From the NCBI GenBank assembly GCA_010093815.1, contig ML996569.1: a DNA stretch of 64,000 nt; one strand, 5' to 3'. How positions within the stretch are numbered: the stretch's first letter is position 1; each line of letters starts with the position of its first letter. Below the pieces are notes generated by a model. The model did no database searches. It had not been told where the DNA came from and saw nothing but the letters and a program-made list of their open reading frames with translations. The translations under genes and the position numbers were made by a program. Positions 14,167 through 55,411 of the stretch are shown piece by piece. Source of the stretch: Pseudovirgaria hyperparasitica. Lineage: Eukaryota.

Positions 14167-15930
14167 TCAGACAAGGATGAAATCCTGAACGTCGAAAGGT
14201 AACGGCCCCTCATGCAAATGTTCGAGCCATGCCCTATCCCTCTTATCATACTCAACACCCGGGTTCGCCTTCCTGCGAGCATACTCAAGAGCTTCGCCTT
14301 CCATATGACCCCTCACACAACATAATCCCACATAGCGATACTGGTCCTGCACTGCAGTTGGTCTCAGTACCACTGGAACGTCATGTCCGAGAATGATAGC
14401 AATAACGTCCCCTTGGCGCGCATTCGAAGAAGTCATGCCGAACCGCCCATACTCGGTTGTACATGCCCGAAGGCGGGCGAAAATCTCCACTCGCTTTCTG
14501 CCGAAGAAGCTTTCGGCAGCATTTGACTTTTGATATCGGGCATGGGTGAGGATTGCCAACGGATCCATGCACATGGCACTCATTGAAGCTGGATCATCCG
14601 GGTCAAAGACTTTGAGAGATCTGAAGAGGTTGAAGAGGTCGTTATACACCAATTCGGTGTCATTGGGAACGTAGGTCTCCTCTTCGTCATCGGAAATCCA
14701 GGGGACATCGAAGAGCTGGATACGGTCAAAGTAGACGCCCTTGACCGTGAGTTTCTCCATATTGGGGCAGATCTTGACGCTCAAAGATGACGAGCCAGAA
14801 GTGGTGAACTTAGTCCCCTCGTACCGGTGCATTGATGAGTCTTGGCCCTCCAGAGTCCAGTCTGGAACCCAGGACGGCAGGTCTGTGTTCTTGCGACGAG
14901 CCTGTTTGCCTGATATACACGACAGGATTTTCAAGCTTTGGGTGCGTAGAATATGAGACGCAGCCAGTCTTGAAAACACATGTCTGACCGGCAAAGAATA
15001 GTCTGGCAACACAAAGTCTTCGGGCTTGGCCATACCAAGAAGAGAATATACAATGTCAACTTGGTGCGTGCATGCAGCACCGCGTCGAGACTCAAGAAGC
15101 TTGACCAAGTCTGTTCCATCTCTATGATTTGAGTCTTTTCCTATGGCCAGAAACCCACCGAAGGTTGACAGGGCTCGGAGCTGTTTGTTGGAAAGTAATC
15201 GCAGGTAATGAGTTGCATTGTCAAGAAGGTAAAAGAGCGATACCCCAACAGACCAGAGACACCCTTCGACATGGTACGAACCACAATAGAATGTCTTCTC
15301 CTTGGCCAATATAAATTCTTGATATGTCCAGGCCCTGTAGAACCAAGGATGACTGAGCAGACGAGCAAGAGACTTATAAGCTGCGGCCGACGGCTCTGAC
15401 ACGCGCATCTTCCGAAGTGCTCCCCAGATCTCAGACCACTCCTCCGTTTGTCCACCAAGACGATCAAAGAACTCACTGAATTTCGGCCCTGCTGTGAGAG
15501 CAAATGCTTTTATCCAGACAAACGCCTCAGGGGCACCATACCAACGCTCACCGAGCCAAATCAGCACCCCCGAAGCCGACGAATACACCTGGCCCATCAA
15601 CCCAACCTGATGATTCCGCTCGCGTATGTTGCCCTGATCAATACAGATCTTGTCGACCCAGAGCAATCGCGAGCCGAGATCAGGTCGGAACTGGCGGAGC
15701 GCGGCAGCCAGGTTTGGCGTGATCTTCAGCTTTCTCCCGTTGCAGTAGAACGATGCCACGTCTTTCTCGTTTCCCCAGACATATGAGATCGCTTCATAGC
15801 TGGGCGGGTTTGCGAGATCGCATTGGCGCAATCGTGCGTGAATGGTTCTGTCGTTGGGGTGCTTGGGTGGGAGTAGCTCGATTAGTCTGGTCGAGGTGTT
15901 TGACCGTAGCGGCTCGTATGTGAACATCAT
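14167..15930 (-). CDS. HET-domain (heterokaryon incompatibility, HET-6-like) protein
   Basis: YEAISYVWG, LLWVDKICIDQ..ERNHQVGLMGQVYSSA, HPWFYRAWTYQE, DIVYSLLGM, LPSWVPDW, GDVIAIILGHDVPVVLR. Intronless, 587 aa. Confidence 0.93.
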   Translation of the reverse strand: MMFTYEPLRSNTSTRLIELLPPKHPNDRTIHARLRQCDLANPPSYEAISYVWGNEKDVASFYCNGRKLKITPNLAAALRQFRPDLGSRLLWVDKICIDQGNIRERNHQVGLMGQVYSSASGVLIWLGERWYGAPEAFVWIKAFALTAGPKFSEFFDRLGGQTEEWSEIWGALRKMRVSEPSAAAYKSLARLLSHPWFYRAWTYQEFILAKEKTFYCGSYHVEGCLWSVGVSLFYLLDNATHYLRLLSNKQLRALSTFGGFLAIGKDSNHRDGTDLVKLLESRRGAACTHQVDIVYSLLGMAKPEDFVLPDYSLPVRHVFSRLAASHILRTQSLKILSCISGKQARRKNTDLPSWVPDWTLEGQDSSMHRYEGTKFTTSGSSSLSVKICPNMEKLTVKGVYFDRIQLFDVPWISDDEEETYVPNDTELVYNDLFNLFRSLKVFDPDDPASMSAMCMDPLAILTHARYQKSNAAESFFGRKRVEIFARLRACTTEYGRFGMTSSNARQGDVIAIILGHDVPVVLRPTAVQDQYRYVGLCCVRGHMEGEALEYARRKANPGVEYDKRDRAWLEHLHEGPLPFDVQDFILV

Positions 15931-32491: not shown

Positions 32492-34191
32492 ATGACTTAT
32501 AGGTACCTGCTTTTCGCTGTTTTGGCGATGGCGGGCTTTTGTTCGGTACGTCTTGGGTTCACATACACTGGAGACACATACCTATATCCTCAATAATAGG
32601 TCTGGGGGTTTGGTATCTGGATAGATCTCAAGTAATCCCTACAGGGTAATCACGATGGGTCAAGGTATATCTCCTTTCCATGTGTGAGAGCTTCCGCTGA
32701 TATGAACAGGCGGCTATCTCACACTTGTCAATGGGTCCCCCTTTGATTGGACCGTAGCAAGTCAGCATTCTTACCAGATGGTGACCTGGAACTGGCCGAC
32801 AGTACCAGCAGGCGAGGCTCGTTATACAGACATTTTAACTTTCGCTAATCCGACCAAGGCGAATCGAAGCAGGTTTATGTCGAATGGGGCGACTCGGGAA
32901 ATATCAAAGACAATTCCGCTGAAGCGTACTACTCTATTACCGGAACCGACCAAACTTTCCAGGTCCAGGCCCGGAGCAAGTCTTCTTTCCCTCCGGACTT
33001 CCATCTTTACATCTCTCTAGACAATCTCGACACCAAATCGAACAACAAAGGTGACGTCATTGATGAAGGCTGGCGCCACGATCGAAGCCTTAATTGGATT
33101 CTTTCTCAAGACGACCGGGGTGAGTTCTGGTCGAACTCTGCCCTGGGAATAGACTGGATGCACCAAAGTTTGCCTACGATTGGTAACCGCAAACTAAAGC
33201 ACATCTGCATGCCTGGTAGTCACGATGCGGCAATGTCAGAGTATCATCCTGGAACCATTGGTGCAAATTATCAGAATACACAGACCCAGCTCTTCAGCTT
33301 CTATGATCAACTCGTATATGGGTCGAGGTTTTTTGACTATCGACCTGTTATATCGAATGGTCAATTCGTTGCTGGTCACTACTCAGAAGTTGCCGATGTC
33401 TGGTTTGGGGGAAATGGTCAGAGCATGTCTAGCGTGATTGACCAAATCAACTCGTAAGTACTCTGGTGGATCAAGGCCTCGTAGCGTAATCTCACAGCCG
33501 CTTCAGCTTCACCCAAACCAATCAAGAACTCATCATAATCTACCTCTCCCACACTCTCGATACCGACAACAACTTTTCCGCTCTGACCCAAGACCAATGG
33601 AACCGCATGTTCTCCGAACTCACTCGCCTAAACCACCGCTTCATCCCGTCAACTATACCCTCCGACCTTACCAATCTCAAGCTTAACGACTACATCGCAT
33701 CCTCTGCCGCCGTTCTCATCCTTGCGGAGCTCCCTAACGGCATCTCGCTCGGCAACTACGCATCCCAAGGGATATACTCCTCCACTTCCTTTCCCCGCTT
33801 CGACGTCTACGCCAATTCCGACGATCGCACTACTATGGAAAATGACCAACTCGCCAAACTCCGTGCTCAGCGCCACGTATCCGCGACTGACACCAAAGAC
33901 ACATTTTTCAGTCTCTCCTGGACACTCACGCAGCAGAACCCATTTGGTGATGCGATTGTTAATTTAGCAGTGAGTGTATGGGACGACTTATTCGCAAAGG
34001 CGTATGCGGCTTTCACTCCAGAAAGCTATCCGAACGTGCTGTTCCTGGATGCATATGCGGCAAGGGATAGGGCTGGGTTTCCGGTGAGCGAGAAGCCGGC
34101 GAGTGTGCCTGCATATCCTGACGCTGCGGCACTGGCTGTGGCAGTCAACTTCGGAGTTGCGGGGAGGAATGGCTTTGTGACGGGAGAGTAG
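32492..34191 (+). CDS. Secreted PLC-like phosphodiesterase (PI-PLC X domain), multi-exon
   Basis: Signal peptide MTYRYLLFAVLAMAGFCS; LKHICMPGSHDAAMS; QLVYGSRFFDYRP; LSWTLTQ; YPNVLFLD. The 5' micro-exons are uncertain. Confidence 0.85.
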
Positions 34192-35081: not shown

Positions 35082-36329
35082 ATGATGGTCGATATTGAGA
35101 AGCAGCAGGATGTGAGTTTGGAATTGGGTCTGTGTGTGTTTTGGTGCTGATATCACGATACAGACACACGCAGAGAATGCTGTTGTCGAGCAGATACCGG
35201 CTGGGACGCCGTCGAGTCCGGCTGGTCCTGCGGCGAATACGAAGAAGACTGCTACGAAGAAACTCACAAGGCTATTTCGAAACATGGTTCCAAAATCGGT
35301 GCTTCCGGAGAACGATATTCTAGTCAAAGAACTGAAGGCGAGGAGGGATTGTATGTCTGCCATTCCGCAGGAAAGTCTGCTCAAGGGATATCCAAGCGTT
35401 GCCGGTCATATGGGGCAAAAGCATACGTCCGCCATCTTTCGCCGATTCAGTACTCTCAACGCTCAGAATCTGTTGTATATGCAGGCCGAGCTAGTCGCTT
35501 TGGAGGGAGAGCTTCGTGATGTAGAGAAGGAGGATCATTCAAGCGATACATCGCCTAGTTTCGAGTACGTCAGAGACTGGCATTCGCTCAGTAAGTCAAA
35601 GAAAAATGGGGATGACATACAACTCAGACTTGTGATGCGAATAAGGAAGGCTTTAAAAAAATACAGTTAGATGCTCCAACGCAAGCGCCTCGAATGTCGA
35701 CTAACACTAAAGTCCAGATAAGGCTATGTTACAGACGTCAGCTATGCTAGCATTGAGTCCACCAGCTCCCTACGATATAAGCGTGGTTCAAGATTTTCTG
35801 TTCACTCAAGGAAACGACGCTTTGATGGGCCACGACTCAGGAGTTTGGGGTAGCGTTCACACACCTTTCACTCATGCTCCAGACTTGGTCGCCTTGAAGC
35901 CTCGTCAGACGGAGGATAGTTTCTCAGTTTGGGTAGCTGAGAAGGCATCCGGATACTGGCTACAACTCCGTAGTCGCTGGCATCGCATGACTACCAAGGA
36001 CACATCTGAAACGCCACAATTTCGAGTGACAGATGCAAGTCTTTTGAGAGCGACATACTGGATCACAAGCATTGTTGCAGCGCTTCTACCAGTTCTATCA
36101 ATAGTTATATTGATATATGTTGACAAGCTTCCCCAAAAGCTCGCTGTAATCGGGTGCTTGAATTTGGTAGTCTCGTTATGTCTGACCATATTCACCAGCG
36201 CCAAACGCACGGAGGTATTTTCCGTCACTGCTGCGTGAGTATATCAAGTGCAATGTCGTTAACTGTTGAACTAACCTTGTCCTTAGGTTTGCGGCCGTCC
36301 AAGTCGTCTTCGTTGGTGTGAATCAATGA
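35082..36329 (+). CDS. DUF6594-type membrane protein, copy 1 (exons 35082-35111, 35164-35665, 35718-36234, 36287-36329)
   Basis: GYPSVAGHM..IFRRFSTLNAQNLLYMQAELVALE; three C-terminal hydrophobic segments ending KRTEVFSVTAAFAAVQVVFVG. All introns are GT-AG with branch sites. Confidence 0.88.
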
Positions 36330-36611
36330 TTGGGTCGAACGCGATCCCCTCGTGTCCTCCATATCGCTTTGACTATTCGAATGCTGGTTCCGACGGTCTT
36401 CCATTCTTCCCTGGGCATTCTCATCGTCTAAAGCTTTCTGTCGAGCGATTACTTCCTCATGGGTAGCTTTGAAATTCCTGGCCGCTATGCTTTGATTAAG
36501 CAGCCATATGCCCTCAGAAGCCCCTCTTACGGACTCACCCTGGTCGATATCTTGAGTCTTCGTTGCCCGTACATCACCTTCGCTTGGACGTGTAGTATTT
36601 TTTCTAGCCAT
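36225..36611 (-). CDS. Small charged coiled-coil-like protein overlapping the 3' end of DUF6594 copy 1
   Basis: ATG at 36611 and a clean 54-nt GTGAGT..CTTAAT..TAG intron-like segment at 36485-36538. Antisense overlap of about 100 nt lowers confidence. Confidence 0.35.
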   Translation of the reverse strand: MARKNTTRPSEGDVRATKTQDIDQGESVRGASEGIWLLNQSIAARNFKATHEEVIARQKALDDENAQGRMEDRRNQHSNSQSDMEDTRGSRSTQSLIHTNEDDLDGRKPKDKVSSTVNDIALDILTQQ

Positions 36612-38043
36612 CACTAGTTGGTAGAAAGCGACTGAAGCTCGGCTGGTTATCGAACACATGGCTGCTCGATGGCATCCCAACTGCCATAATATACTAGAGC
36701 CATGGCCACTGCTGCGGTTCAAAGAGCACCTGGGTCACAAGAAGGACAAAGAGCAGTGAATCAAGCAGGTTCGCTGGCATGGAAATTCATCATTTGGCTG
36801 GAATCGAGCGTGTTCATTGCACGAGAGCTTACGGTTTTGCCCTCGGAATGCGGCAAAAAACCAGCCTTGAGCATGAGGAATGAAGGCAGTGTCTGAAAGA
36901 AACTTGGAAGGGACATTTAGATCCAGTGAGGTGAGATAGTTTGCCACCGCACTGTCTTGCCTGATTCATTGGGACTTGTGAATGTAGCGGTGTGAAGCGA
37001 GCTCAAACCCTCGTGAATAACCCTCTGTCATGTGGACATGGAATGTTCGGTGTTGTAAAGATCATTAACAGTAGATAGATATCAATATAAATGTACAGAT
37101 CTCATAGAATGGGTTACTTCGAAGAGGAGGTATTATAATAGAGGTAGTATGTGTGAAATTTTCGAACCAGGTTTTCTTTTCCTCTCTCCTTCATTAGATG
37201 CAAGTCTGTAATCAACGCTTGCATACGTCGAGTAAACTATCTTAAGTTATCATTACGTCGCTAATGCGTACGTCTAGTGTAGTATGTACTATGGTGTGTG
37301 GACGTAGAAGACCTCATGAACCATAAGAATAGAGAGAAATTACACGCGTAAGTACGAAAGCGCTGGGTAATCTATATATAACGCATTATGACAGTTACTA
37401 AGGAGCGCATCTCAGTATGAAATCAGGCAGAGACAATAGTAAAAACAGGTTTGTGCCGGTGTAGGGCTTACTGGCCCCCGAGGCTCGGTGGTGAATCTTC
37501 AAGTAAGACAACATCCTTCTGCCTTGCCCCGTTGGCACATTCACGAAACAAGGCGGAGCATGGAAACCCGGTAAAACATAGATACAGAGTGACAGAGAAC
37601 TGTCTTGACTGACCAGAGCCTGGATAGACGTCTTCCACGGATAGGCGAAAGATATATTATACCCGAGGAAATCGACTACTTAACGAAAGAAAGCAAGGAG
37701 AGTACACCCACGGCGCAGGGGCGGGACCAGCCGCTAAAACTCAGAACTAATACAAATTCGGTAATATTCTATATGCTTCTATCAACTTCAACTCTATTTG
37801 AACGATGATCAGCGGCAGGGGCAGATGCATACTGCGTCTGACAGGGCTGTGATACTATCTTACTGGCCTCTGCATGCTTCACGGCTGCTATTATGTGTGT
37901 GGTCAGAGAACCACCCGACATTTCTCTGAACTTGCAAGTATTATACTTAGCTGGGATAGCAGAGGTCTTGATTAATTATGGTTGCCTTCATTATGTTATT
38001 CCCGGTCACGCACAATGAGCATTTCAGTTTTTGTGCTGTGCTT

Positions 38044-38970
38044 TTAAACAAACTTTGACTTTGCTCTCGGCAATCTTGCACCGTCAAGCCAAACGTCAAC
38101 CTTCTCATTGTAGAAGCACGCATATCCAGCGATAGAAGCTACTTCTTGCTCGGGATACCTGTACCACCATATAAGATCCTTGATCGTGTGCTGTTTACCT
38201 TCGTGGTTTACTACCACGTCGAAGTATTCTGCGTCGCCTTTGTATGGACATTTCGTGATAGTCTTGCTAGGTCGCAACATTGAAGGGTCAATACAGGTCA
38301 TTGGTATGTAGAATCGTACAGGAAGATCGCCTTCAATGAGGCGATAGTACGAGGTTGATGTAGCGAGGACAAGACGGGTGTCTTGTAAGCAAAACGACAA
38401 TGGTCGAGTGGAAGGGAGGACAAAGATACGTTTCGTAGGGTCTTTAGGGTGTACGAAGATTGGAGATTCTTCCTCGTACCAAGCATCTATTGGTGCCAAT
38501 GTGAGCAGAAGTAAATTCGCGAGGAACGTAAGAAAGGTAATAAGCTCACCCATTTCACCAAAGGGCAGTCGGACGTATCCATTGAGAGAGCGACCTGCTC
38601 GCGAACAGTCCATCTCCCGGAAATGGATGACCTCAAACTTCTTCTTTCCAGTCTTCGAGGAGCTTACTTGCCATATGTCCGCGCTGTCAATCAAAACGTG
38701 AGTGCCTTCGTGCCAATGCTCGCCGGGGCGATCGCAGTCAAGCGTTTCCACGAGCTGCGCGTGCAGGTTGTCCCATTTCATGTCTACTTTGGGCACATAG
38801 AAGTATGGGTAGTAGGGATGTTCCCAAACGTATATCGCTTGGTTGGTGTCGCAAATGTAGTTTCCTTCGAAGACTACGCGTACACGTCGTTTCGCGTCCT
38901 GTGGGCGTGGCGTGACCGCATCTGGGCGCAGTAGAGCACGCACAACCTCTTTAGCATTGGAAGCTTGCAT
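38044..38970 (-). CDS. DUF427 (tandem-domain) protein, 2 exons
   Basis: YVWEHPYYPYFYVP, DAWYEEESPIFVHPKDP, TKCPYKGDAEYF, DLIWWYRYP, CFYNEKVD. Confidence 0.88.
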   Translation of the reverse strand: MQASNAKEVVRALLRPDAVTPRPQDAKRRVRVVFEGNYICDTNQAIYVWEHPYYPYFYVPKVDMKWDNLHAQLVETLDCDRPGEHWHEGTHVLIDSADIWQVSSSKTGKKKFEVIHFREMDCSRAGRSLNGYVRLPFGEMGELITFLTFLANLLLLTLAPIDAWYEEESPIFVHPKDPTKRIFVLPSTRPLSFCLQDTRLVLATSTSYYRLIEGDLPVRFYIPMTCIDPSMLRPSKTITKCPYKGDAEYFDVVVNHEGKQHTIKDLIWWYRYPEQEVASIAGYACFYNEKVDVWLDGARLPRAKSKFV

Positions 38971-39361
38971 TTCACGAGGCGCGAATGCGAAGTATCAATC
39001 AATTGACCGCTCTAGAAGTTCAGAGACAGAGCGGGAGTTCCACGAGGAGAGCCAAGGAGGTGGGGAAGGACGCTGAGTAAGCGAAGACGCCGGCAGAGCT
39101 TAAAGCTGAAATATAAACTATTATAGATGGCTTGATGGTGTCAACTATGTCCTGACATGCCGTATAAATCGAGCACTTAATGAGTGCTTATCAATGGCAA
39201 AAGTCGTTCAATACACATCACATCGCATACACGCACTCAATTGTGAACCCTGTTGAGCTGCGATATGAGAATTACATTTTCGCTCGTGCATATATGTCGT
39301 CTTTAACACCGCCAATTTTGAGTTTCGATATCGATGATTACGTTTTTCCTGGGGCACCAAC

Positions 39362-39866
39362 TCAGCCTTCCTGAGCAGCCGTACTCAACATGAAGTCCGG
39401 ACCCAGGACGATATCAAAGGGAGGATTCTTCTCTTCCACGACATAGAACCGCGAGCTAGCCGACGACAACTTCTTCGACTCCCCGACGGCCCAATGCAGG
39501 TCGATATAGCCCGTGCAACTGCTCCCGTCAATCTCGATCAGGCTACATGCCGCTCCATATTGCTCGCCAAAGGATGTGAACCCGACTTTCAAGGTCCTGG
39601 TCAGGAAATTGGGTGATATTAGGTTGTGCTGACGGGCATGGCTATGTACAGCTCTTCCGATCCGTACCTTGCCTGCCAAGGGCTGTGCACAGAGTTTGAT
39701 ATTGTATTCTGTGAGCCTGTCGTCACAATGCTTCAGGTATGTGATATCTGCTGGCATCTTGAAACTCGAAATAAGCATCTTTCCGTCACATATTCGTGGA
39801 ACATTATCTTACTTTAGTAGACCCAAAGTCTTGATTACGATAGTTATAACCAATTGCTTGAGTCAT
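39362..39866 (-). CDS. Retropepsin-fold protein lacking the catalytic D-T/S-G (putative pseudoprotease)
   Basis: GRAVHSHARQHNLISPNFL sits where ALxDTGxxxNxIS is expected, and the C-terminus FYVVEEKNPPFDIVLGPDFM matches the hhG.D strand. The upstream exon (ATG 39866) is tentative. Confidence 0.6.
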
Positions 39867-41635
39867 GAGGATCTTCCGCAGCGGCTCGTATATGGTAGAT
39901 CTTGTGATTATGATATGTTCTAACACGAAGAGGAATTACTCATTCGTGAAAGGGCCGATTGGGGCATTTAAAGGCGCCTGGATCGTCGTTTCGTGGTGCT
40001 TTTAGCATTTCTTAGACAATATTTGGGTGCTTTACTTGCTAGTTGCACTACAGCACGATATCGTTCGTCCATAGACTGCTTTCCTACAATAGTCGTCATG
40101 AACCCAGCGAAAAGGGCCCTGCTTATCGTGGACTCATTCCCGCTTCCCCGGCCAATTGTCTACGACTCTCCATATGAAGATTGACTTGGAGTGGAGTCTG
40201 TGCTGCTGATACGCCAATTACAATCTGATTGCATCTCATGGTGGGGAGCTCTGTGTCAGCAAAATATCAACCTTACGCACTACCCAAAGCGCCATAGCAA
40301 TGTGGGAACAGATGAGTCTCATTGTGTGGCCTGTACCATCATGCGAGGTAAGGGCTCAAGGTGAAAGATCCTCTGCCATAGCCATGCTCATGTCTAACGC
40401 AATCCCAGAAATAGTGGTGAAATGCCCCACTCATGGGCCATCTTCGCGTAACTGTGATGCAGGTAAACATGGACAAGGTAGCTGTGGTCTCTGCCGTGAC
40501 AAGGTTTGAGATAATCCTAGAGATGGTCACTCAGTGGTAAAGCTCGCGTTTAAACGAGGTCCAGGATAAGGCCTTCGTCATACCTAATGAGTGGCATATG
40601 ACAAGCTAGGGGAGAAATTGGAATTAGAATGGCAGGGAGCGAGAACGTTCCAAAGGTCGATGTACGACAACACCTCCTACCTGGTCACACGAGTTACTCC
40701 TTAGATTGTCACGTGAGTATCTATATCATTCATTGCCAACAAGAAGTTAATTCAGCACAGATGATATTTCGGCAAAGCTCCAGATTGAGTTTGACATTAC
40801 GAGGAGTTCTATACCGCAATTTTAGTTCTACTTCCCTCTTTATATCATCGTCAAACAAAGGACTATTACTCAAATTTGCCCTCAGAACATTGCTTCAGTA
40901 CTATTTCCGTGTTTTGGTGCCACTGCTATCCCAAAGACTTGACATATCGGCCCTCCAGATGCGGTATTCCGGTAGGTCTCACATGTGTTCATGTAGCAGT
41001 GGTACCTTTCCCCGTCTATCGATGCGACCGCCCTCTTCTACGTCATTTTACGAGTAAATGCAAGTGGCCGACTCCATTGTGACTCGGTGTCTCTTGGCTA
41101 CCCGTATATGCAGGCACAAGGACCAACAAGAAATGAGATTTTGTAGTCCGTTCGAGCATACATATGAACGAAACGTTCCGTGCTATACTCAAACGTGCTC
41201 GAGACCCACCTTTCTGCTTCAGTGACCGACCCACATGATCGGGCTTGAGAGAATCCGTGCAAAGTCATGCTTTCAACTATGCAAGTGTTTTGCCTCTTCT
41301 TGTGATAGTTTGACTTACCTGAACCAGGAAATGCTAGTGAAGGATGGCGCTGCCCTTTACATATGCCACAGTTATTCGCCACTTGGGTCTGCCCTATGTG
41401 ACGCACGAACGTCGGACAGATTGTTTGCTGTTATCTAAACAAGAAGTTCGTGCAGATTCATGCACATACGAAGATAGCATGATATATCCTGTGCCATGAC
41501 GGGTACTTGCGGAAACAACTGCGCCGTAGCAAGAGCCCTTGAATTGGAGACAGGTAATTGCGAATCTAGAGAGCTTCGTAGTACACTCTGAGAGATGTCA
41601 TTGAAAAGAAGTCAGTATCCGCCCATATCAGCACG

Positions 41636-42713
41636 ATGTTCCACTCAGGAACCCTCTGCACCAATATGGAGATGTCTGAAATACCTGACCAACCTCCTCC
41701 GAGCTTGATTACGGACTTAGAAAGCGGCAGTATAAAGAATGATTTGGCGGCTGGTTATCCACGCCTAGCACAAGAAATGAGTAACTTTCCTGAAACTACT
41801 ATTATTCGAAGCTTCTCATGCTTGGCTACGCGGATACTCCTCTATATGCAAGCTGAGTTGACGGGTCTCCATACTAGACTGCTTACCGTGGAAGACTGCA
41901 TCAGTAAGAATGAAGACCGACCATTGTATGCTGTTGATTGGGCATCAGCATTATCAGTAAGGATGGATCAGAGCACTGACGGAAGTTTTGAAGCTGAGCA
42001 TAGCGGCTTGGTCACGAAAATACGGCATGTTATGAAGGAATACTGTAAGTAAACAGAGCCATTATCGCCTAGAAGCTTCTAATGAGACTGTAGATAAGTT
42101 TGTCATTCTTACAAACAGTGTATATTCTCTCAAAGAGCCCAGCCAGTACGACCTTGCACACATACAGAGCTTACTTTCGAGCGACATGATGGGCCCCTGT
42201 GCGATGGTTGGAGACGATTTCAACACGTGGGGCTCCATAGAGCAACCAACAGCGGCCTCTCCGGATCTATTCGCTATGACTAGCCGAGAAACGATGGATC
42301 CTTTCTCAGAATTCTTCGTTGTTCGATTCGTTAGAACGCTTCTTCGATTTAACGGCTTTGGAATGTTCAAACCAAGCACCTTCGGAGGTTCGAAGGCCTA
42401 CAGAATCAAGACGATATCTCACATAGCAAGAGCAATCACAACTATGATAATGGCCTTCTTCACGAGTTCGGCGATCATCAGTCTATATTTCGTACAACGT
42501 AAAGACTTGAAGGTCGCTATGGCGGTTGTGTATATCTTCTTGGGCGCTACGTCCCTGAACTTCCTGGGACTACCAACCCACATTGAGATATTCATATTCA
42601 TTGCCACGTAAGACACCTAGCCTGATGCATATCAACATCACTAATTACGCAGACTTTCCGCTGTATTTGTCACGCTTATCTTAAATCAGGGTACTCTCGA
42701 CAATATCTTATAG
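41636..42713 (+). CDS. DUF6594-type membrane protein, copy 2 (introns 42045-42093, 42608-42652)
   Basis: GYPRLAQEM..IIRSFSCLATRILLYMQAELTGL; P..YDL..IQ; WGSI....PDL; three C-terminal TM segments. Both introns match the position and phase of introns in copy 1. Confidence 0.85.
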
Positions 42714-43093
42714 ATGCAAGCCTGACACAAAGTCTCTACTCTGAGTCACTGAAGTCATCAATCCGTGGAGGCTTTTCAACGATGGTCAACTTTAAGCAAT
42801 CTTTGTGTTTCGTTGCCTACTGTGGCTGAATGAGCATCGACCTCAAAGGAATATATTATGCATCAGTGCTCTTGATATCATTACGTTAGCCCTCCTTCAT
42901 AGAAGATTTCATACTATTGTTTTTGACTTAAAACCCTGAATGAAGATAAGTTACTCTTTATGGTAGTAAAGCATATGAAGATGTGATAAATTCTGCATCA
43001 ATATCATCGATCGTCACTTGAATACAACATACTGCTTAGCCAACAAATACAGATCGCTCAGAAAGCAGCGAGACGGGCTATCTTAAATCGATG

Positions 43094-44091
43094 TCAGCTC
43101 TGCTGGCCTTGCGTGCTTTGTGTATTTTGAGTGCTCTGTCTGTTCGATGTGTTGGGCGTGTTTTGTGCGTTTTGCCCCAGTTGCGCCATTCGCGCGTTAT
43201 GACGAGCGTTGTTCTGAGCTCTGCTCTGCTGTACATTGCGTTCCTGCTCATTGCGAGCCTGCTCATAGTTCGGAGCTATTGTATCTAATCAGTCGCATTA
43301 GAGCCGATTGGATGAGAAGTACGTACATTTGGTGTAAGACTGCATGTAGTAACCTTGCGTCATCAACAGTTGAGGATGCGGCCTGTATAGATCATGCTCA
43401 TTCATCGTATCCGACCCAATGATGACCTCAATTGACCTTGATTGAGCTCGTCCATTTTGAATATTTTCGTCTCCGTCATACAAGACAAAAAAGTCTCCAT
43501 ACCAGAATTTAGAAAGTAAATGCAAGGCAGTCCCTTCCGAGTCCAATACTTCGCGCTGACTCGGTGACCGGCTGAAACGAACATCTTTGATCTCTCCAAG
43601 AGCGTATACTGGACAGCCTTGGATAGACTCTGCAACTACGCGCGGCCCATCTTCGTAGTTCATGTATGGAATATGGTTGTTGTGAAGCCATTCCAAGGTA
43701 ACATAATTATATGTGCTCCCGGTGTCGAATATTGCAACGCCATAGCGTAGCAGATCGTCATCCCCTTCGGTACTACAGATGAACTGGAGTGTCCTTTCGA
43801 AAGCATTGCTCTCTGGCAGTGAATAATTTGCGTTCTGCCCTTCCGTAGGAATCACAGAACTCTTTGTACATGGTTCCGGATATGGATCTGCCAAAGTAGA
43901 AGTCTCGCTCTAAGACTTTGTCAGTTCCGCTGTGAACGCGAATTGAGCTTGCGAAAGTAGTGAGATTGAGGCGCTTCGAGGGGTAGGTTGTAATTGGACT
44001 CTATAGCTCCTACCTCACTCTGATGGCTCACTACACCGCAACACAAAGTTCTCACGGCTCTCCGGAGATGATAACGGGTAAGAAGCTTCAT
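43094..44091 (-). CDS. Retroviral-type (retropepsin) aspartic protease with a Q/N-rich tail (exons 44014-44091, 43327-43909, 43094-43284)
   Basis: VAIFDTGSTYNYVT catalytic motif and IEVIIGSD strand. A 42-nt GT-AG intron leads to NYEQARNEQERNVQQSRAQNN...QGQQS*. Exon 1 (MKLLTRYHLRRAVRTLCCG) is in frame but tentative. Confidence 0.8.
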
Positions 44092-44600
44092 TTCGTGCCG
44101 GTTATCTTCTTCTACTGTGGCTATTGGTCTAGTGTTTGTTTGAGGGATATATTATTTCACTCACTTGACTCAAGAGACTTCACGCTGTCGTACCGTATAA
44201 TGTAGCAAGGCTGGCAAGTCTTGAATGCAGATGAAGTGAGTTTGAGCTTTGCCCCTAGATTTCAGAGATTATCAAACGAGATGTAGAGAATATGGTTGCC
44301 TGGATCAATGGAAGATCAAGAACGTCAGTAATCTTTTTGCTTTCATTAGAACTTGAGCATAGCAGCCCACGGTAGGATAGGTTTTAACCTGATTTATGAT
44401 ACAACAGAAACGAGTGGGGGTCTACACGTGCGGCGTTGAATAGTCTCTCCTGATTGGAGTACTTTGCCCCTGAGATCAGACGACATAGCGAACTGCACGA
44501 AAAGGCGACTCATGACGCCTTACGCCATTTTCCAGATCATATAAAGACGCGCAGTGATGCTTATGCCGAGGCGTCCTTCGCATTCAAGTCTCATCGTCAC

Positions 44601-45062: not shown

Positions 45063-46299
45063 ATCGTCACGAAACTTAGCCTTTTTGGTTCAAGCGGACG
45101 TGATCTGGCATAGCATTCGGGCCTTTGTCGACGACTATATCGGGATATCACGGAAAACAGCAAAGGCAAATCTAGGAAGCTGCCAGGAAGAGATCCGACT
45201 GTTGGCTGCGAAGCATGCTGTGTCGATTCCAGATCAGTGAGCGATTCCTAGGACTACTCAACTACGTAGTCTCCTAGGGTCACAGTACGGTCGAGACTCT
45301 CAATGTAGACAGCCAGAGTCTTCGTCAGGAAGGGAGCGTCGAAGCCTAGCGTGGCACATACATGTTGTGAGCATGCGTTGGACGTATGAGTTGAGCGGCA
45401 AGCGCGTTATTCCAGGGCTGTCGGAGCCCCCACGCTTTTGTACTGACCGCATCCACCGTACTAAACACTCATCAGCACTGGTCGGATAAATGAGGACTCA
45501 AGAAATTCCTCCCAGCAAACGTGGGGTATATTTCTCACCTTCCAGGGATTCGTTAGACTGTGCTTCTGATATATTAGATGCTTGAATGGAAGAAAGCCAC
45601 AAAGACTCCCTCTCGATCGACCGGTGGCTACGTAAACCATCCTTTGGAGAGGATAACTTCTCCATGGGTAGGCAACTCGAAGGGCTGTATAAATTTTGAT
45701 TCTATAGGTCGAACAGGTCAGTTCTTATAGAGAAGAGGTTCTAAATTTGTTATGTTGACTTGGATCTTTTGCGTAGCAACTGTAGGATCTCTGGGTCCCA
45801 TGCAATTGCACATGCCATATAGAACCATTGGCGCCACGTCGGTATGCTGTGCAATGCCTCTCACATTAGCGATGCCAGAGCTAAGAGAGTATCGAAGCCT
45901 GACTATATGGCCATGGATGCATACATCCATGCTTATTTGCCGAACAAATGCGGGGAAATCTCGAAAGCGCCTGTAGCGCTTGAAGATACAACCAACCTTG
46001 GAAAAGTTCAAGTGACACAATGCTGGTAGAGAGCGAGAGGTTACGAGGTATCGTCAAAGCTAGAATAGGATGATGTATTCGGGTTCAAAGATCTGACATA
46101 TCAAACTATGTGGACATGAATCACACTAGGCACCTGCTGTTAACAAAGGTTATAGGGACCCTTCCCGACGCAAGCAGACAAACCCTTGTCTATATGAGTT
46201 CTGGAGCTAGTCCATCCGTGGAAACCAACATATCGGATTGTTCTGCACCTCGAGTCATCTATATGTTTAGAGACAATTTTGTGCCATTATACATGACTA

Positions 46300-46949
46300 G
46301 CAACTAATGATAGTGTTTTAAGGTGTAGAAAGTAGTAGACCCGTTAAAATTTTAATGAGATCTCTATCTGGGTCATATATATAAATCTGTAACATTATCT
46401 TTGGTCCTACATACTTCTTCGTATTAGTAAATAAGCATCTACTATCTGTGTTATATAGATCTTTGTATATATATATATATATAGTTTTCTTAGCTAAAGT
46501 ATCTTCTAATTCATGATTCTCTACTAACTTATGAAATGAATCCAATGTATATACTAAAGTCAAGATGGGTTGACATATATTTCGATAAATAGTATCCTTT
46601 TATGTATAATTAGTAACTTCAGTGGATATCACATCCGACTATATCTTTACCTAGGGAGCCTAACCGCCTGTTTATCTAGAACCTTCTTCTGTTGATTGAT
46701 GATTAATATAATACTCAAAGTATTGTAAGCTGGTATCGTTTGTATAATCATGATATAGGAGTAACGTTTCAAGTCTACCTTGGAAACCGCTAGCTAGTTT
46801 TGAATAACAACTCGTTGATAGTTCCTATTAGAGGTAAGTTCTCTATAATATTTCCTCTATTCTTTTATCGATAACATATTGTTTATAGACAGGATATACT
46901 ATCTTGTCTGACTATCTCGAGGTATTACCTATCAATTAACGAGTTCTAT

Positions 46950-46950
<1 letters not shown>
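46300..46950. other. AT/TpA-rich RIP-like degraded tract of unknown origin
   Basis: Abrupt drop in GC, many TA dinucleotides, no credible ORF. Confidence 0.55.
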
Positions 46951-47044
<94 letters not shown>

Positions 47045-47054
47045 NNNNNNNNNN

Positions 47055-47148
<94 letters not shown>
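46951..47148 (+). repeat. (CAGA)n microsatellite spanning a 10-N assembly gap
   Basis: Directly visible; Ns at 47045-47054. Confidence 0.98.
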
Positions 47149-47149
<1 letters not shown>

Positions 47150-48230
47150 TAGAGTATACAGTCAAACTACCAAACACAAGACTCCCATAAAAGCCTAGAA
47201 GCGCCCAAGAAAAATGTCTATCGTGCTGCGAGGAAACAAAACTACATAATCTCCAGCTTGGTGCAAGCAAACTGAGAGGAGACAAAGGACGCGATACGAC
47301 AAACTACACATCACATCACATCACATCACATACGACACATTCCTAGCCGTGAGGCATGTCCAAATGCCTCTTATTTACCCCCATCCATTCATTCCAGAGA
47401 ACTGCACCCATCATGAATCCATCCACGCACATTCGCAATCATTCATCACCAGAAACACACAACACGCACACAATACAAAGACCAGTACTTTGGAATTTAC
47501 ATACGTACATAGTACAGAAAAGCCAGGCCCAAGACTAGAACGAATACTAATACGCGGATAAAACTAGAAAAAGACAAAAAAAACTCAAAACAGGTGAAAA
47601 AGTGTCCGAAGGTGAATGTCGCTCTCTCCACATGCCGCCGGGGGACGTACGTACAAGACAACCAAAGAAAACAAAAACAGGACAGAAGACCCACGTATAA
47701 GACAACAAAAGAACACCGAACAAAAAGCAAAGCGAGAAGAACACAAAAAGATGCAAAACGCTGATGTTGTAGTTGTTGTATGCAATGATGTGCGGATCCA
47801 GATGCACTTATGCGGTTGAGCAACGCCATGTATGCCATGCCAGATGACGGTTCGCTGGCCGGCCGGCTCAGATGCGCCACGCATCCGGTAAACAAGAACA
47901 AAGAGACATGGATGAACGCCGGACAGATGCGCCGATAAAGACGCCTATGCTATGCAGATAGCAGAACGAAACAATGAGATGTGCGCTGGTTGGGAGACAT
48001 AGAAGCCGGTTGTATGTCCATGGAAATGCAAGAAAAGTGCGAGACGCCGGGTATCATTTGGGTGGTTTTGGTGGCGATACAATGAGATGCGAAGATGCGA
48101 TTGAAGCAAAGAGCAGTGTTTTACGGTGGGTCACTTGAACAAAGGACGGCTTGCGAGTGACAAGATGCGATGTTGTTGACGTTCCTGGTTAGACTGATGG
48201 ATCGCCGTGTAAGCGTACCGAACCATGCTT

Positions 48231-49904
48231 TCAGCTTCTTCTTCGCCGACGTGGTGGCTGGGCGTCTGGGAGTGGTGGCAGAACGGTGTCTTCCGGGCCC
48301 AGCTCACCCGTCAACCACTGGCCCATGAATGTCTGCCATCTCCTCAAGTCCTGATCTTTCGTACGCTCTCGCTCTCGTCGATGTCGCACGAGCTTTTCTG
48401 CTGTTTGTATCAGCATTGTCCGCGGAGGCGCGTACGTGTCATGGTCGTGGTCGAAATCTCGGTTCAGGTACTTTTCAGTCACCTCTTCCATTCTCCGCAG
48501 ACTCGCGCCACCGGGAACAATGATCTCCATGTTCGTCTCTGGATCGATCCAAGGCCCTTTCTCCCAGTTGTCGAGCTTCATCGTTTCCAGACCGCTTGAG
48601 ACGTTGAGTCTCTTGTACCACTTATGCTGTCCTCTGGCAGTGCTAAGCATAGTGCGGTGCGTTTGTTCACCTTCCGTGTACTTGACCATGAGGTTCTTGA
48701 CGACAGCAAATTTCTCGGACGCAGTCTTCATGACCTTCAATTGGCCCAAAGGTCCAGGCCATGCACTGGCAAACCCATCATGCGCCTCGTTTGGCTTTCC
48801 AGTGCCGACCGAAAGAAGCAGGCTTGGTTCTTGATCCTCGCCATACATGCTGAGGAACTCAGACCACGCTGCGGACGCGGGATTATTTTCACGGATTCCG
48901 CCATCCTTGAAGCTCTTGACCTCCCCTCTGATGTCTGCCTCGAGAGCTTTGAAATAGAACGGCGCGGCTGAAGTGGCACGAGTAACTTGCCAGATTCGCA
49001 GTGGGTCAGCGCCCTCGTTGTATTTAATGAGCCAGTCGGCAAACTGGACTCGGGTGTTGTATCGGTGGTTGTAGGAGCGAAGAAGGTAGGCCTCGTCGAT
49101 CTTGCCAGAGTGCGTTGCGGTCAAGCATATACTACTAGAATGAGCATGATTCTCAGTGAATGGTATGCAAAACGTACCTTTGACAGATGCGCTCTTCAGA
49201 AATATCAGGTACCCAGGGGTCGTCTGGATTGCGACCTTTTGTCTCGAGATTCCAAGGATGCCAATCCTGGCCATCACATTGCCCTCGCGGATGTGTCTTG
49301 CAGTACGTTTTGACTATTCGCTGTACAGCAGTCTCTAGCGGCCGGTGGAAGTACTTCGTGGCTAGCGGCACGCGAGTCCTTCTGTGGCCAAACAGATCGT
49401 TTCCAACCTCTCGGTAAATCTTCAGGCATTGCGGGACGCTCATTCGCAGTCTTCCTAGCATAGTGGCGATGAGGCCACCTGTACTCGTTCCATACATGTA
49501 ATCGAAGTAGTGGCACGGTAGAAGCTCGTTTACCGCGTAGGACCGCGAAGTCGCGCCAGGAATTGGACCCTCTTCTCTTTCTAGTTTGCGTTCCCATGTT
49601 GATATCTCGCGCATGAGCTGGAGGAGTATGAGGAGAGTCGAATAACCACGGATACCTCCGCCATCTGCATGATTGTCAGCTTAGATCGCATGCATGACAG
49701 CGCACTAGTTAAAGCGTGCGCGAGGAGGATGCTGAGCTTACCAAGGGTGAGTATCAAGGGGTCCCACGCATCAACGACTCTGCGCGACCAAGCACGACCT
49801 GAAGTGACGTCCTCGTTCTCGGAGTTGTTTGTAATGACGCTTAGTGGACGACTCGAGGAGAGGTTCGGGGATAGTCCCTGGGAGAGTGAAGCTTGAAGCG
49901 ACAT
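48231..49904 (-). CDS. Patatin-like phospholipase (iPLA2-like), catalytic motifs intact, 3 exons
   Basis: LILTL-intron-DGGGIRG; GTSTG nucleophile elbow; RATSAAPFYF; KDGG. The second intron (49135-49177) is 43 nt with a NAGNAG acceptor. Confidence 0.92.
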
Positions 49905-53478: not shown

Positions 53479-55411
53479 TCACCGCACGCCATACTCCGGC
53501 TTCCGAGCCATATTGACAGGCGGCGGACCATCGGTATCGGGATACGGCAAGGCAGCACCAGCACCAAGACCAGGAGGCACGAGCGGCACAGGACTGCCCG
53601 GATTGCGAATCGGGCTCTTAGGCGGCAACGGCGGTGGGGTACGCGGGACATCTGCGCTTCTGCGGGGGCTGGGATTGTAGCTCCGTTCGGAGCCGGAGGG
53701 GAACTGGTCGTGGGAGCGGCGGTAGGGGTTCATTTGCGGGTAGTCTGCGCTGGGGCGAGACGGCGGGTGGTGGGAGACGTAGAGGGGTTGTGGGTATGAG
53801 GAGTCGTCGTGGGCGTCGTCAGCGGAAGAGATGGCGATTTTGTCGTCTGGGTAGGAGGGGTAGGAGAAGGTGCTTGCGTTGGAAGGGGTGAGGTAGTCGG
53901 AGGGGTTGTATGGGATGTCGTCGGCTGGGAGCTCCACAGCCATTGGGTTTGAGGGAGAGGTGTATTGTGCGTTGGACGAGGACATTTGCATACGCATGGA
54001 TGGGTCGCCGCCAGCTCGGAGTTGGCGCTCCCAGCGCAGCTTTGCGCGGTGGATGCGCGCGATCTTGCCAGCTGCGTCGAGGTTGATGTTCTGGACTTCG
54101 CTGCGGGCCAGGTACATGCGAGTATTCGTGCTGATTTCGGCGAGACGGTTCCATTCGTTCATGCCAAATTCACCGACGCCCACCTCGACGTTGAGACGAT
54201 AGTAGTTCTCAGGATTGACGTTGCGCTTCGAGATGTGCTCTTTCAGCATGTACTGGTGAGTTTCCTCGCAGCCTTCGATTTTGGCAATCAGACGGCGACG
54301 GGCCTCTGCAAAGTCACCCATACCACTCGACACAAACCCTTCCCACCACAGGTGTTGTTGCTGGTTTGTGCCTTTCGGTCGTTTGCCTGTGCCGATACTT
54401 ATGAATACGCCGACTTCGCGGCCAGGCCACTCGTTTTGGACGGCCTCGTCAAGAATTTGAGGAGCCGGGTTGTACTTTCCTGCCCCCTCGTCGATGAAAA
54501 CATGTTGGCCAACTTGTATGGGCTTGAAGGCCAGACCAGTAGCTGCAGTAGCTCTTCCAGCTTGCCAGATTGTGCAGTTAAATTCCGGCGCCGGTTCTTT
54601 CCGGGAGTCGTAGGACCGCAGCATTGTGGAAGATCCGCTTTTCGGAGTGCCCTTGTAGACCGCTGTGACTGCACTGGGACAAGGTCAGCATACTGAGACA
54701 AGCATTTATTCACGAGTTGACGTACGTCTTGGTCCTGTTTTCCCTCGAATCGTATAATAGTGCGTTTGGATTGCCAAAACGCATGGACCCATACGGGCCT
54801 CGCGGGTTGACAGGCGTTGATCCAATCTGGCTGTAGCGGCTTGAGCTGCTGGGACTCCTGTGCGGCGCTATGGAGGTTCCAGGAGTCAATGGAGACTTGA
54901 GGTCCATGGACGACTCCGCAGCATGTGAATCATTTCCCTCATGTTCCGATATGGTATGCTCACGCACGCAGTCCCTTATAGCGTCTTCTAGCTTCGAGGC
55001 TTTGAACAGTGTGCTTCTATACGGTATGCCTGCAAATGTCTTGTCTGTCTCGAACACTCTCTTCGTCATGCGTACGTATACATCTTTTGACGTCTCGATA
55101 TCAAGCCGTAAGCGTCCCAGCATAATGGCGATCAAGCCGCCAGTACCGGTACCAGCGATGAGGTCGAAGTGGTCGCATGGCTTAGGAGTCTCGTGTCGCT
55201 TCGGTGCTCTGCCTTCAATCTCGACGAAGGTGCGGTGCATGAGTTCTTGTAAGAGGATAAGCATGGAGTAGCCTCTGACTCCTCCTCCATCTGTCGATCG
55301 TAGTTAGTCTTGTTCCACAAGAAAAGCCATGGAAGCTGGCGTACCAAGGGAGAGGATACGCAAGGGAGGACCCTTTGTGGTGTCCTTCCGTCTGAGTCCC
55401 TGACTATCCAT
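53479..55411 (-). CDS. Patatin-like protein with altered catalytic motifs and a Pro-rich C-terminus, 3 exons
   Basis: LRILSL-intron-DGGGVRG; GTGTG in place of GxSxG; IDEG in place of DGG/DGA; tail contains PPPLPPKSP. Confidence 0.92.

Follow-up and report, generated by a model that had tools for sequence, protein, structure and literature searches.

Putative stand-alone retropepsin-fold host genes lying tail to tail with diverged DUF6594 genes in the fungus Pseudovirgaria hyperparasitica

Retropepsins are one-lobe aspartic proteases, which have to dimerize in order to build an active site with two aspartates. Stand-alone host proteins with this fold, such as Ddi1, act in protein turnover, and animals possess a stand-alone domesticated retropepsin, SASPase/ASPRV1. 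Fungal incompatibility and NLR loci, in turn, often contain genes of the HET-domain and patatin-like families. Among 1,884 fungal homologues of het-Q1, 80% lie within 10 kb of a gene for an S8 or CHAT protease (PMC8851545). Here we analyze a locus in which two genes of the family DUF6594 lie beside two genes, P0001 and P0003, with a predicted retropepsin fold. It was found in Pseudovirgaria hyperparasitica, a Dothideomycete described as a mycoparasite of rust sori (PMC3317363). The window, that is, the whole stretch of DNA analyzed, comprises 64,000 nucleotides of contig ML996569.1, and the minus-strand open reading frames (ORFs) of P0001 and P0003 are identical to annotated hypothetical proteins of this fungus.

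Taken jointly, the evidence is best explained by two old DUF6594 paralogues, each lying tail to tail with a stand-alone retropepsin-fold host gene, and by an adjacency that stems from an ancient block duplication; we assign this reading a probability of roughly 0.6. A functional link between DUF6594 and the retropepsin-like proteins is possible. The four genes concerned are as follows.

35082-36329, plus strand: DUF6594 copy 1, 363 amino acids (aa); exons 35082-35111, 35164-35665, 35718-36234 and 36287-36329
39362-39866, minus strand: P0003, paralogue within the retropepsin-like family, 149 aa; exons 39866-39813 and 39757-39362
41636-42713, plus strand: DUF6594 copy 2, 327 aa; exons 41636-42044, 42094-42607 and 42653-42713
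43094-44091, minus strand: P0001, member of the retropepsin-like family with intact FDTGS and VIIGSDT motifs; coding exons 44091-44014, 43909-43327 and 43275-43094

Judged by sequence comparison, P0001, P0003 and their relatives form a real family. Word-indexed protein searches with P0001 and P0003 returned only the proteins themselves. An exhaustive HMMER search with P0001 identified P0002 of Glonium stellatum as its sole relative among 1.84 billion representatives (E = 5.9e-6), and in BLASTP comparisons this protein matches both P0001 (E = 9e-14) and P0003 (E = 2e-7). The profile of these three proteins recovers proteins of Cenococcum geophilum, with five proteins at E <= 0.01 among 1,165 candidates. 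A metagenome scan yielded at least 594 pattern stretches, and two soil loci, on contigs of 1,245 and 1,171 bases, were confirmed among the matches listed. When a leave-out profile, made of the 10 rows that do not stem from Pseudovirgaria, was searched over the 1,319 stop-to-stop ORFs of at least 30 residues in the window, it matched two of them, the exons of P0001 (E = 1.3e-9) and P0003 (E = 2.8e-5). Among the matches listed, the family is seen in Pseudovirgaria, Glonium and Cenococcum and on the two soil contigs, and nowhere else. All full-length members end with a conserved Q/N-rich C-terminal helix (predicted local distance difference test, pLDDT, 73-76 in a two-row AlphaFold model). The Glonium and Cenococcum members P0002, P0004 and P0011 carry in addition a Ser/Pro-rich low-complexity N-terminal extension of 230-250 residues, which is absent from the Pseudovirgaria genes.

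The initial annotation had called for the domains to be confirmed with Pfam. This check bore out DUF6594 (PF20237) and failed for the retropepsins, as neither ORF has a match at E <= 10. Indeed, none of the 12 family members, including the ORFs of P0001 and P0003, gives a Pfam match of any kind at this threshold, and the curated retropepsin models PF00077, PF13650, PF13975, PF08284 and PF09668 match none of the 12. Because no Pfam model matches, the family was filed as a new one with a retropepsin fold rather than placed in any existing Pfam family. The two stand-alone retropepsin-fold genes that had been proposed for the locus are nevertheless supported by the family profile and by predicted-structure matches, and with moderate confidence we assign them to a new family of stand-alone host genes with a retropepsin fold that Pfam does not detect.

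An AlphaFold model of P0001 calculated from the 12-row alignment reached a predicted TM score (pTM) of 0.55 and a core pLDDT of 70-87, and a model from a two-row alignment was set aside (mean pLDDT 33). Foldseek comparison of the P0001 model with the PDB gave exclusively RVP domains of Ddi1 or HIV/SIV proteases at the listed ranks 1-50 (best E = 5.4e-4; TM scores by target 0.5-0.68). With VIA-align, which is independent of Foldseek, four of 48,161 chains scored Z >= 8, namely the proteases of RSV, EIAV and FIV and the Ddi1 of Toxoplasma (Z 8.3-8.8); its first 12 rows are all retropepsins and are followed by lobes of pepsin-like enzymes. Best Z values of 7-8 are common for models without a true match, and therefore we rely on the motifs and on the fact that the top rows are uniformly retropepsins. 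The ESM Atlas puts both P0001 and P0003 beside retropepsin clusters, by features as well as by Atlas models (TM 0.54-0.62). As for the motifs, F-D-T-G is found in 11 of the 12 alignment rows, the sole exception being P0003, and occurs in P0001 as FDTGS within the minus-strand ORF 43298-43909; a later hydrophobic-I-G-S motif is common to nearly all 12 rows. Based on the predicted structures, a retropepsin fold can be assigned to P0001 with moderate confidence. The protein most likely is an active aspartic endopeptidase. If so, P0001 would pair with a second chain to form the two-Asp active site expected from this fold, and the conserved C-terminal helix may help in the pairing.

The second retropepsin-fold gene had been annotated as divergent from DUF6594 copy 2 and devoid of the DTG motif, which agrees with the alignment, where HSHA stands in place of DTGS. 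P0003 is also missing a segment of 12 residues, and its branch in the family tree is very long. A direct BLASTP pairing of P0001 and P0003 (E = 0.024) set DTG opposite DGS, but this pairing is ruled out by the multiple alignment and by the stronger match between P0003 and P0002, which places HSH there. From its sequence, P0003 would be a pseudo-protease without activity or else a gene in decay. Residues 5-149 of P0003 are structurally similar to a 470-aa Ascomycota cluster in the ESM Atlas that was automatically named 'Fungal N-terminal domain-containing' (TM 0.62 by query). This similarity hints at possible fusions, in other fungi, of a retropepsin-like fold with an N-terminal domain of the STAND type.

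The two genes on the plus strand had been described as diverged DUF6594-type genes with shared intron positions, and PF20237 matches, an identity of about 30% and introns seen in sequence contigs all agree with this description. Both large exons of each copy exceed the 30-bit gathering cutoff of PF20237 (67.5 and 86.5 bits for copy 1, 48.1 and 40.3 bits for copy 2), and the matches cover profile positions 1-85 and 87-232 of 238; a further DUF6594 match was not found among the 186 stop-to-stop ORFs of at least 90 aa in the window. The copies match each other in BLASTP searches exon by exon (E = 4e-13 and 2e-14), and the spliced proteins of 363 and 327 aa, whose reading frames are open, share 30.5% of their residues over 311 alignment columns. 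In both proteins, hydrophobic 19-residue windows occur in approximately the last 80 residues and nowhere else (around 286-362 in copy 1 and 247-323 in copy 2), which fits two to three predicted transmembrane helices; the N-terminal part of each would be soluble. As read from the sequence, the middle intron of both copies is in phase 1 and directly follows K-x-Y, and the last intron of both is in phase 2 and lies inside the last hydrophobic segment. A PDB sequence search with the DUF6594 exons returned no related chain, and the names DUF6594 and PF20237 gave no match in a full-text literature search.

The intron evidence derives from contigs of two public sequencing runs, X1 and X2, which are not on record as RNA. 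We treated these contigs as transcript-derived because fifteen short GT..AG or CT..AC segments that are present in the genome are skipped in them, and the RNA strand was inferred from the intron ends. In this way, GT..AG joints confirm the introns 35112-35163, 35666-35717 and 36235-36286 of DUF6594 copy 1 in both runs, the first of them being an extra 5' intron of this copy, as well as the introns 42045-42093 and 42608-42652 of copy 2. The minus-strand introns 43910-44013 and 44115-44164 of P0001 appear as CT..AC joints in X1 contigs (43909 to 44014 and 44114 to 44165). Contig cover is absent over 42822-43623, and the 3' intron 43326-43276 is taken from the annotation and from reading the sequence. 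The intron joint of P0003 (39758-39812) occurs in a single small X2 contig. Furthermore, a simple codon-usage test, for which 15 confident window ORFs served as the training set and all six frames were compared, ranked the annotated frame first for P0001, P0003 and DUF6594 copy 1.

For the start of P0001, the position originally chosen, 44091, is retained, as it is the first in-frame ATG after the upstream stop on the contig-joined exons. The public model of the gene instead begins with a first exon at 45057-44959, which lies inside a repeat resembling a miniature inverted-repeat transposable element (MITE) and is probably wrong. The terminal inverted repeats of this element are 39 nt long and 72% complementary, and they enclose a palindrome of 109 nt. 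At its borders, 44600/44601 and 45063/45064, there are several different loose contig ends; since contigs with several different flanks end there, the repeat appears to be multi-copy and transcribed. The features upstream of the P0001 coding region are:

upstream of intron 44164-44115, minus strand: 5' leader exon of P0001, from a contig joint
44586-45077: MITE-like repeat with inverted repeats, upstream of P0001

The sequence evidence identifies the retropepsin-like family as vertically inherited host genes and not as transposon remnants, because its members have introns, one of them at a position shared with Cenococcum, and no gag, reverse transcriptase (RT) or integrase gene is nearby. The initial annotation had already taken the DTG protease for a probable host gene, and its spliceosomal introns are now seen in contigs, with no gag, RT or integrase Pfam match in 274 window ORFs. 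The shared intron is located just after the retropepsin domain, where it occupies one and the same column of the alignment in both Pseudovirgaria and Cenococcum. From this point, annotated and transcript-derived forms continue into the Q/N-rich helix, whereas unspliced metagenome ORFs read into unrelated residues. Up to 34 contigs are recorded for the full-length spliced forms of Cenococcum.

Convergence of the DTG gene on DUF6594 copy 2 over about 380 bp, as first annotated, is reflected in the stop codons at 42713 and 43094, with 380 bp between them. Relative to copy 2, P0003 is divergent, yet it is located downstream of copy 1 and convergent with it at a distance of about 3 kb, with a DUF427 gene in between. 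The order of a DUF6594 gene followed by a retropepsin-like gene in the opposite orientation thus occurs twice within 9 kb. Both pairs are strongly diverged, the DUF6594 proteins to about 30% identity and the retropepsin-like proteins to near the detection limit. The simplest and best account of this pattern is that a block of two genes, DUF6594 and retropepsin, was once duplicated in tandem long ago, with the DUF427 gene later placed inside the first pair. As the repeated pairing would go back to one block duplication, we count it as a single adjacency event; that the linkage was kept by selection despite the divergence is mildly suggested. Two further transcribed features lie between copy 1 and copy 2:

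38044-38994, minus strand: DUF427 gene between copy 1 and P0003; intron 38487-38549; PF04248, E = 5.2e-34
39140-41790, plus strand: spliced RNA antisense to P0003 and reaching into the 5' end of DUF6594 copy 2, from contig joints

The intron of the DUF427 gene is present as a CT..AC joint in contigs of both runs, and the gene probably stands outside any system formed by its neighbours. The plus-strand RNA is represented by one 2,424-nt X1 contig, with matching joints in X2, and has the introns 39735-39818, 40359-40406, 40713-40760 and 41281-41327 (the last GC..AG). It is antisense to the entire P0003 gene and extends beyond the start codon of copy 2. The largest ORF in its joined exons before this start codon has 126 aa, and no Pfam match was found in the joined exons. 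The RNA may serve copy 2 as a long alternative leader, or it may be a non-coding antisense transcript.

Several genes and sequence features elsewhere in the window were also recorded. Just upstream of copy 1, a two-ORF gene at 32849-34191 (plus strand) has no significant Pfam match, with CBM87_Agd3 below the threshold at E = 0.023. The minus strand of the same 64-kb window also encodes a protein with a HET domain (Pfam E = 1.4e-29) and a pair of patatin-like phospholipases, and these three genes occupy 14170-15930, 48234-49680 and 53482-55303. At 46950-47150 there is an (ACAG)n microsatellite of about 200 bp, which is broken by an assembly gap of 10 N and flanked by a low-GC stretch (46001-47000, GC content 0.35); a further AT-rich stretch covers 1001-2000 (GC content 0.30).

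A number of points weigh against the block duplication of DUF6594 and retropepsin-fold host genes. None of the nine inner branches of the family tree is supported, and P0001 and P0003 form very long branches. The fold assignment rests on predicted structures of moderate confidence without a Pfam retropepsin match (0 of 12 members), and searching the PDB sequences with the family profile or P0003 retrieved nothing related. P0003 may not be a working gene, because the plus-strand RNA is antisense to it and its sense intron is seen in one small contig. Finally, the pairing was kept twice, which could instead mean selection for linkage. Outside Pseudovirgaria, the two soil contigs speak neither for nor against the adjacency: they are only 1,245 and 1,171 bases long, and none of their 12 flank ORFs matches DUF6594 or any other relevant family.

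Three other explanations have to be weighed against the block duplication. Firstly, DUF6594 could be a latent membrane-damaging effector that is cleaved by a dimerized retropepsin to cause cell death or allorecognition, analogous to the action of HET-Q2 on the gasdermin HET-Q1, and P0003 might serve as a brake by forming inactive heterodimers. We regard this scenario as unlikely. In its favor, the convergent pair occurs twice within 9 kb at a divergence of about 30% identity or less, so the neighbours have been together for long, and the window contains a HET-domain gene and two patatin-like genes, from families linked to incompatibility loci. The het-Q system itself offers a precedent, with protease genes near 80% of fungal het-Q1 homologues (PMC8851545), and the Atlas cluster similar to P0003 provides a lead only. 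However, the evidence comes from one locus, at which the two pairs probably represent one duplicated event, and a protease family that is limited to three genera and two soil contigs among the matches listed is no general partner of DUF6594, which is a curated Pfam family. The proteases lack the sensor, NACHT, TPR or WD40 parts of many HET-Q2-like proteins, one of the two is catalytically dead, and the first pair is split by the DUF427 gene. A pore-forming role of DUF6594 finds neither a PDB sequence relative nor a literature match, and a word search for 'aspartic', 'aspartyl', 'retropepsin' and 'DUF' found none of these terms in a 2025 review of fungal regulated cell death. Likewise, a literature search linking retropepsin-like proteins with fungal programmed cell death gave nothing related, and one on fungal NLRs with an aspartic protease N-terminal domain gave nothing beyond the het-Q paper (PMC8851545). 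The same idea in its complete form would be a two-gene death or defence module in which a dimerization-gated aspartic protease cleaves a latent three-helix membrane effector and the dead paralogue brakes it through inactive heterodimers, the whole having been duplicated and kept linked in this rust parasite; this appears more doubtful still.

Secondly, the neighbours might be linked outside cell death, if the retropepsin processes or turns over the membrane protein, in maturation or quality control, or if the membrane protein anchors the protease. The repeated linkage of diverged pairs would agree equally with such a role, and Ddi1, the top Foldseek match, acts in protein turnover; since the family is narrowly distributed and a single locus is concerned, however, we consider this link improbable and rank it below both forms of the cell-death scenario. 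Thirdly, the retropepsin ORFs could be leftovers of pol genes of long terminal repeat (LTR) retrotransposons, as retroelements typically encode this fold, a MITE-like repeat is located 500 bp upstream of P0001 and the window includes AT-rich stretches, but this explanation is largely refuted and the least probable, since no gag, RT, RNase H or integrase Pfam match was found in the 186 window ORFs of at least 90 aa or in 88 intergenic ORFs of 40-89 aa, the region 30-50 kb has no long direct repeats except the microsatellite, the genes possess spliceosomal introns with one position shared with Cenococcum, the stand-alone architecture and the conserved C-terminal helix recur in Glonium and Cenococcum, and the active-site motif is conserved in 11 of the 12 members.

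With the block duplication of host genes as the preferred reading, the locus brings to light a family of host genes with a predicted protease fold of the retroviral type that current sequence models miss. In the searches made here, this family spans a few Dothideomycetes including the widespread ectomycorrhizal Cenococcum. It would provide a case of a stand-alone fungal retropepsin beside Ddi1, with a putative natural pair of an active and a dead paralogue. A concrete and cheaply testable hypothesis is now attached to DUF6594; if the protease-effector pair proved true, protease gating of fungal membrane effectors would no longer be confined to gasdermins, or to serine and cysteine proteases. 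With one adjacency event only, the locus represents a lead and not a discovery.

Compared with the described systems, both window genes are ordinary members of Pfam DUF6594 (PF20237) along nearly the whole 238-position model, a family with no described function. The arrangement resembles het-Q1/het-Q2 of Podospora anserina in that a protease gene lies beside a membrane-protein gene in a fungus. In contrast to the het-Q type, the protease of the window has an aspartic retropepsin fold, as predicted, and is not an S8 subtilisin or CHAT protease; its partner is a DUF6594 protein with predicted transmembrane helices and not a gasdermin as in het-Q1, and repeat, NLR or sensor domains, which occur in many HET-Q2-like proteins, are missing from the window proteases. 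With the RVP domain of Ddi1 and the retroviral proteases of HIV, SIV, RSV, EIAV and FIV, the family has more in common: P0001 shares the single-lobe fold by predicted structure, the hydrophobic-D-T-G-S loop and the later hydrophobic-I-G-S motif are at their usual places, and one Asp per chain would imply a dimer. Unlike these proteases, however, the family has no sequence match to Pfam retropepsin models or PDB chains and contains long insertions, one of about 11 residues in P0001. It also differs by the Q/N-rich C-terminal helix and, in Glonium and Cenococcum, by the N-terminal low-complexity extension, and in the searches made here it was found in a few Dothideomycetes only. Moreover, it has no detectable UBL, HDD and UBA parts, which sets it apart from Ddi1, and no gag/pol context, which sets it apart from the retroviral enzymes. 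To SASPase/ASPRV1 there is no detectable sequence relationship and the two belong to different kingdoms, but the architecture is alike, as in both cases a host gene encodes little more than a retropepsin domain, which is predicted for the fungal family, together with flanking low-complexity regions.

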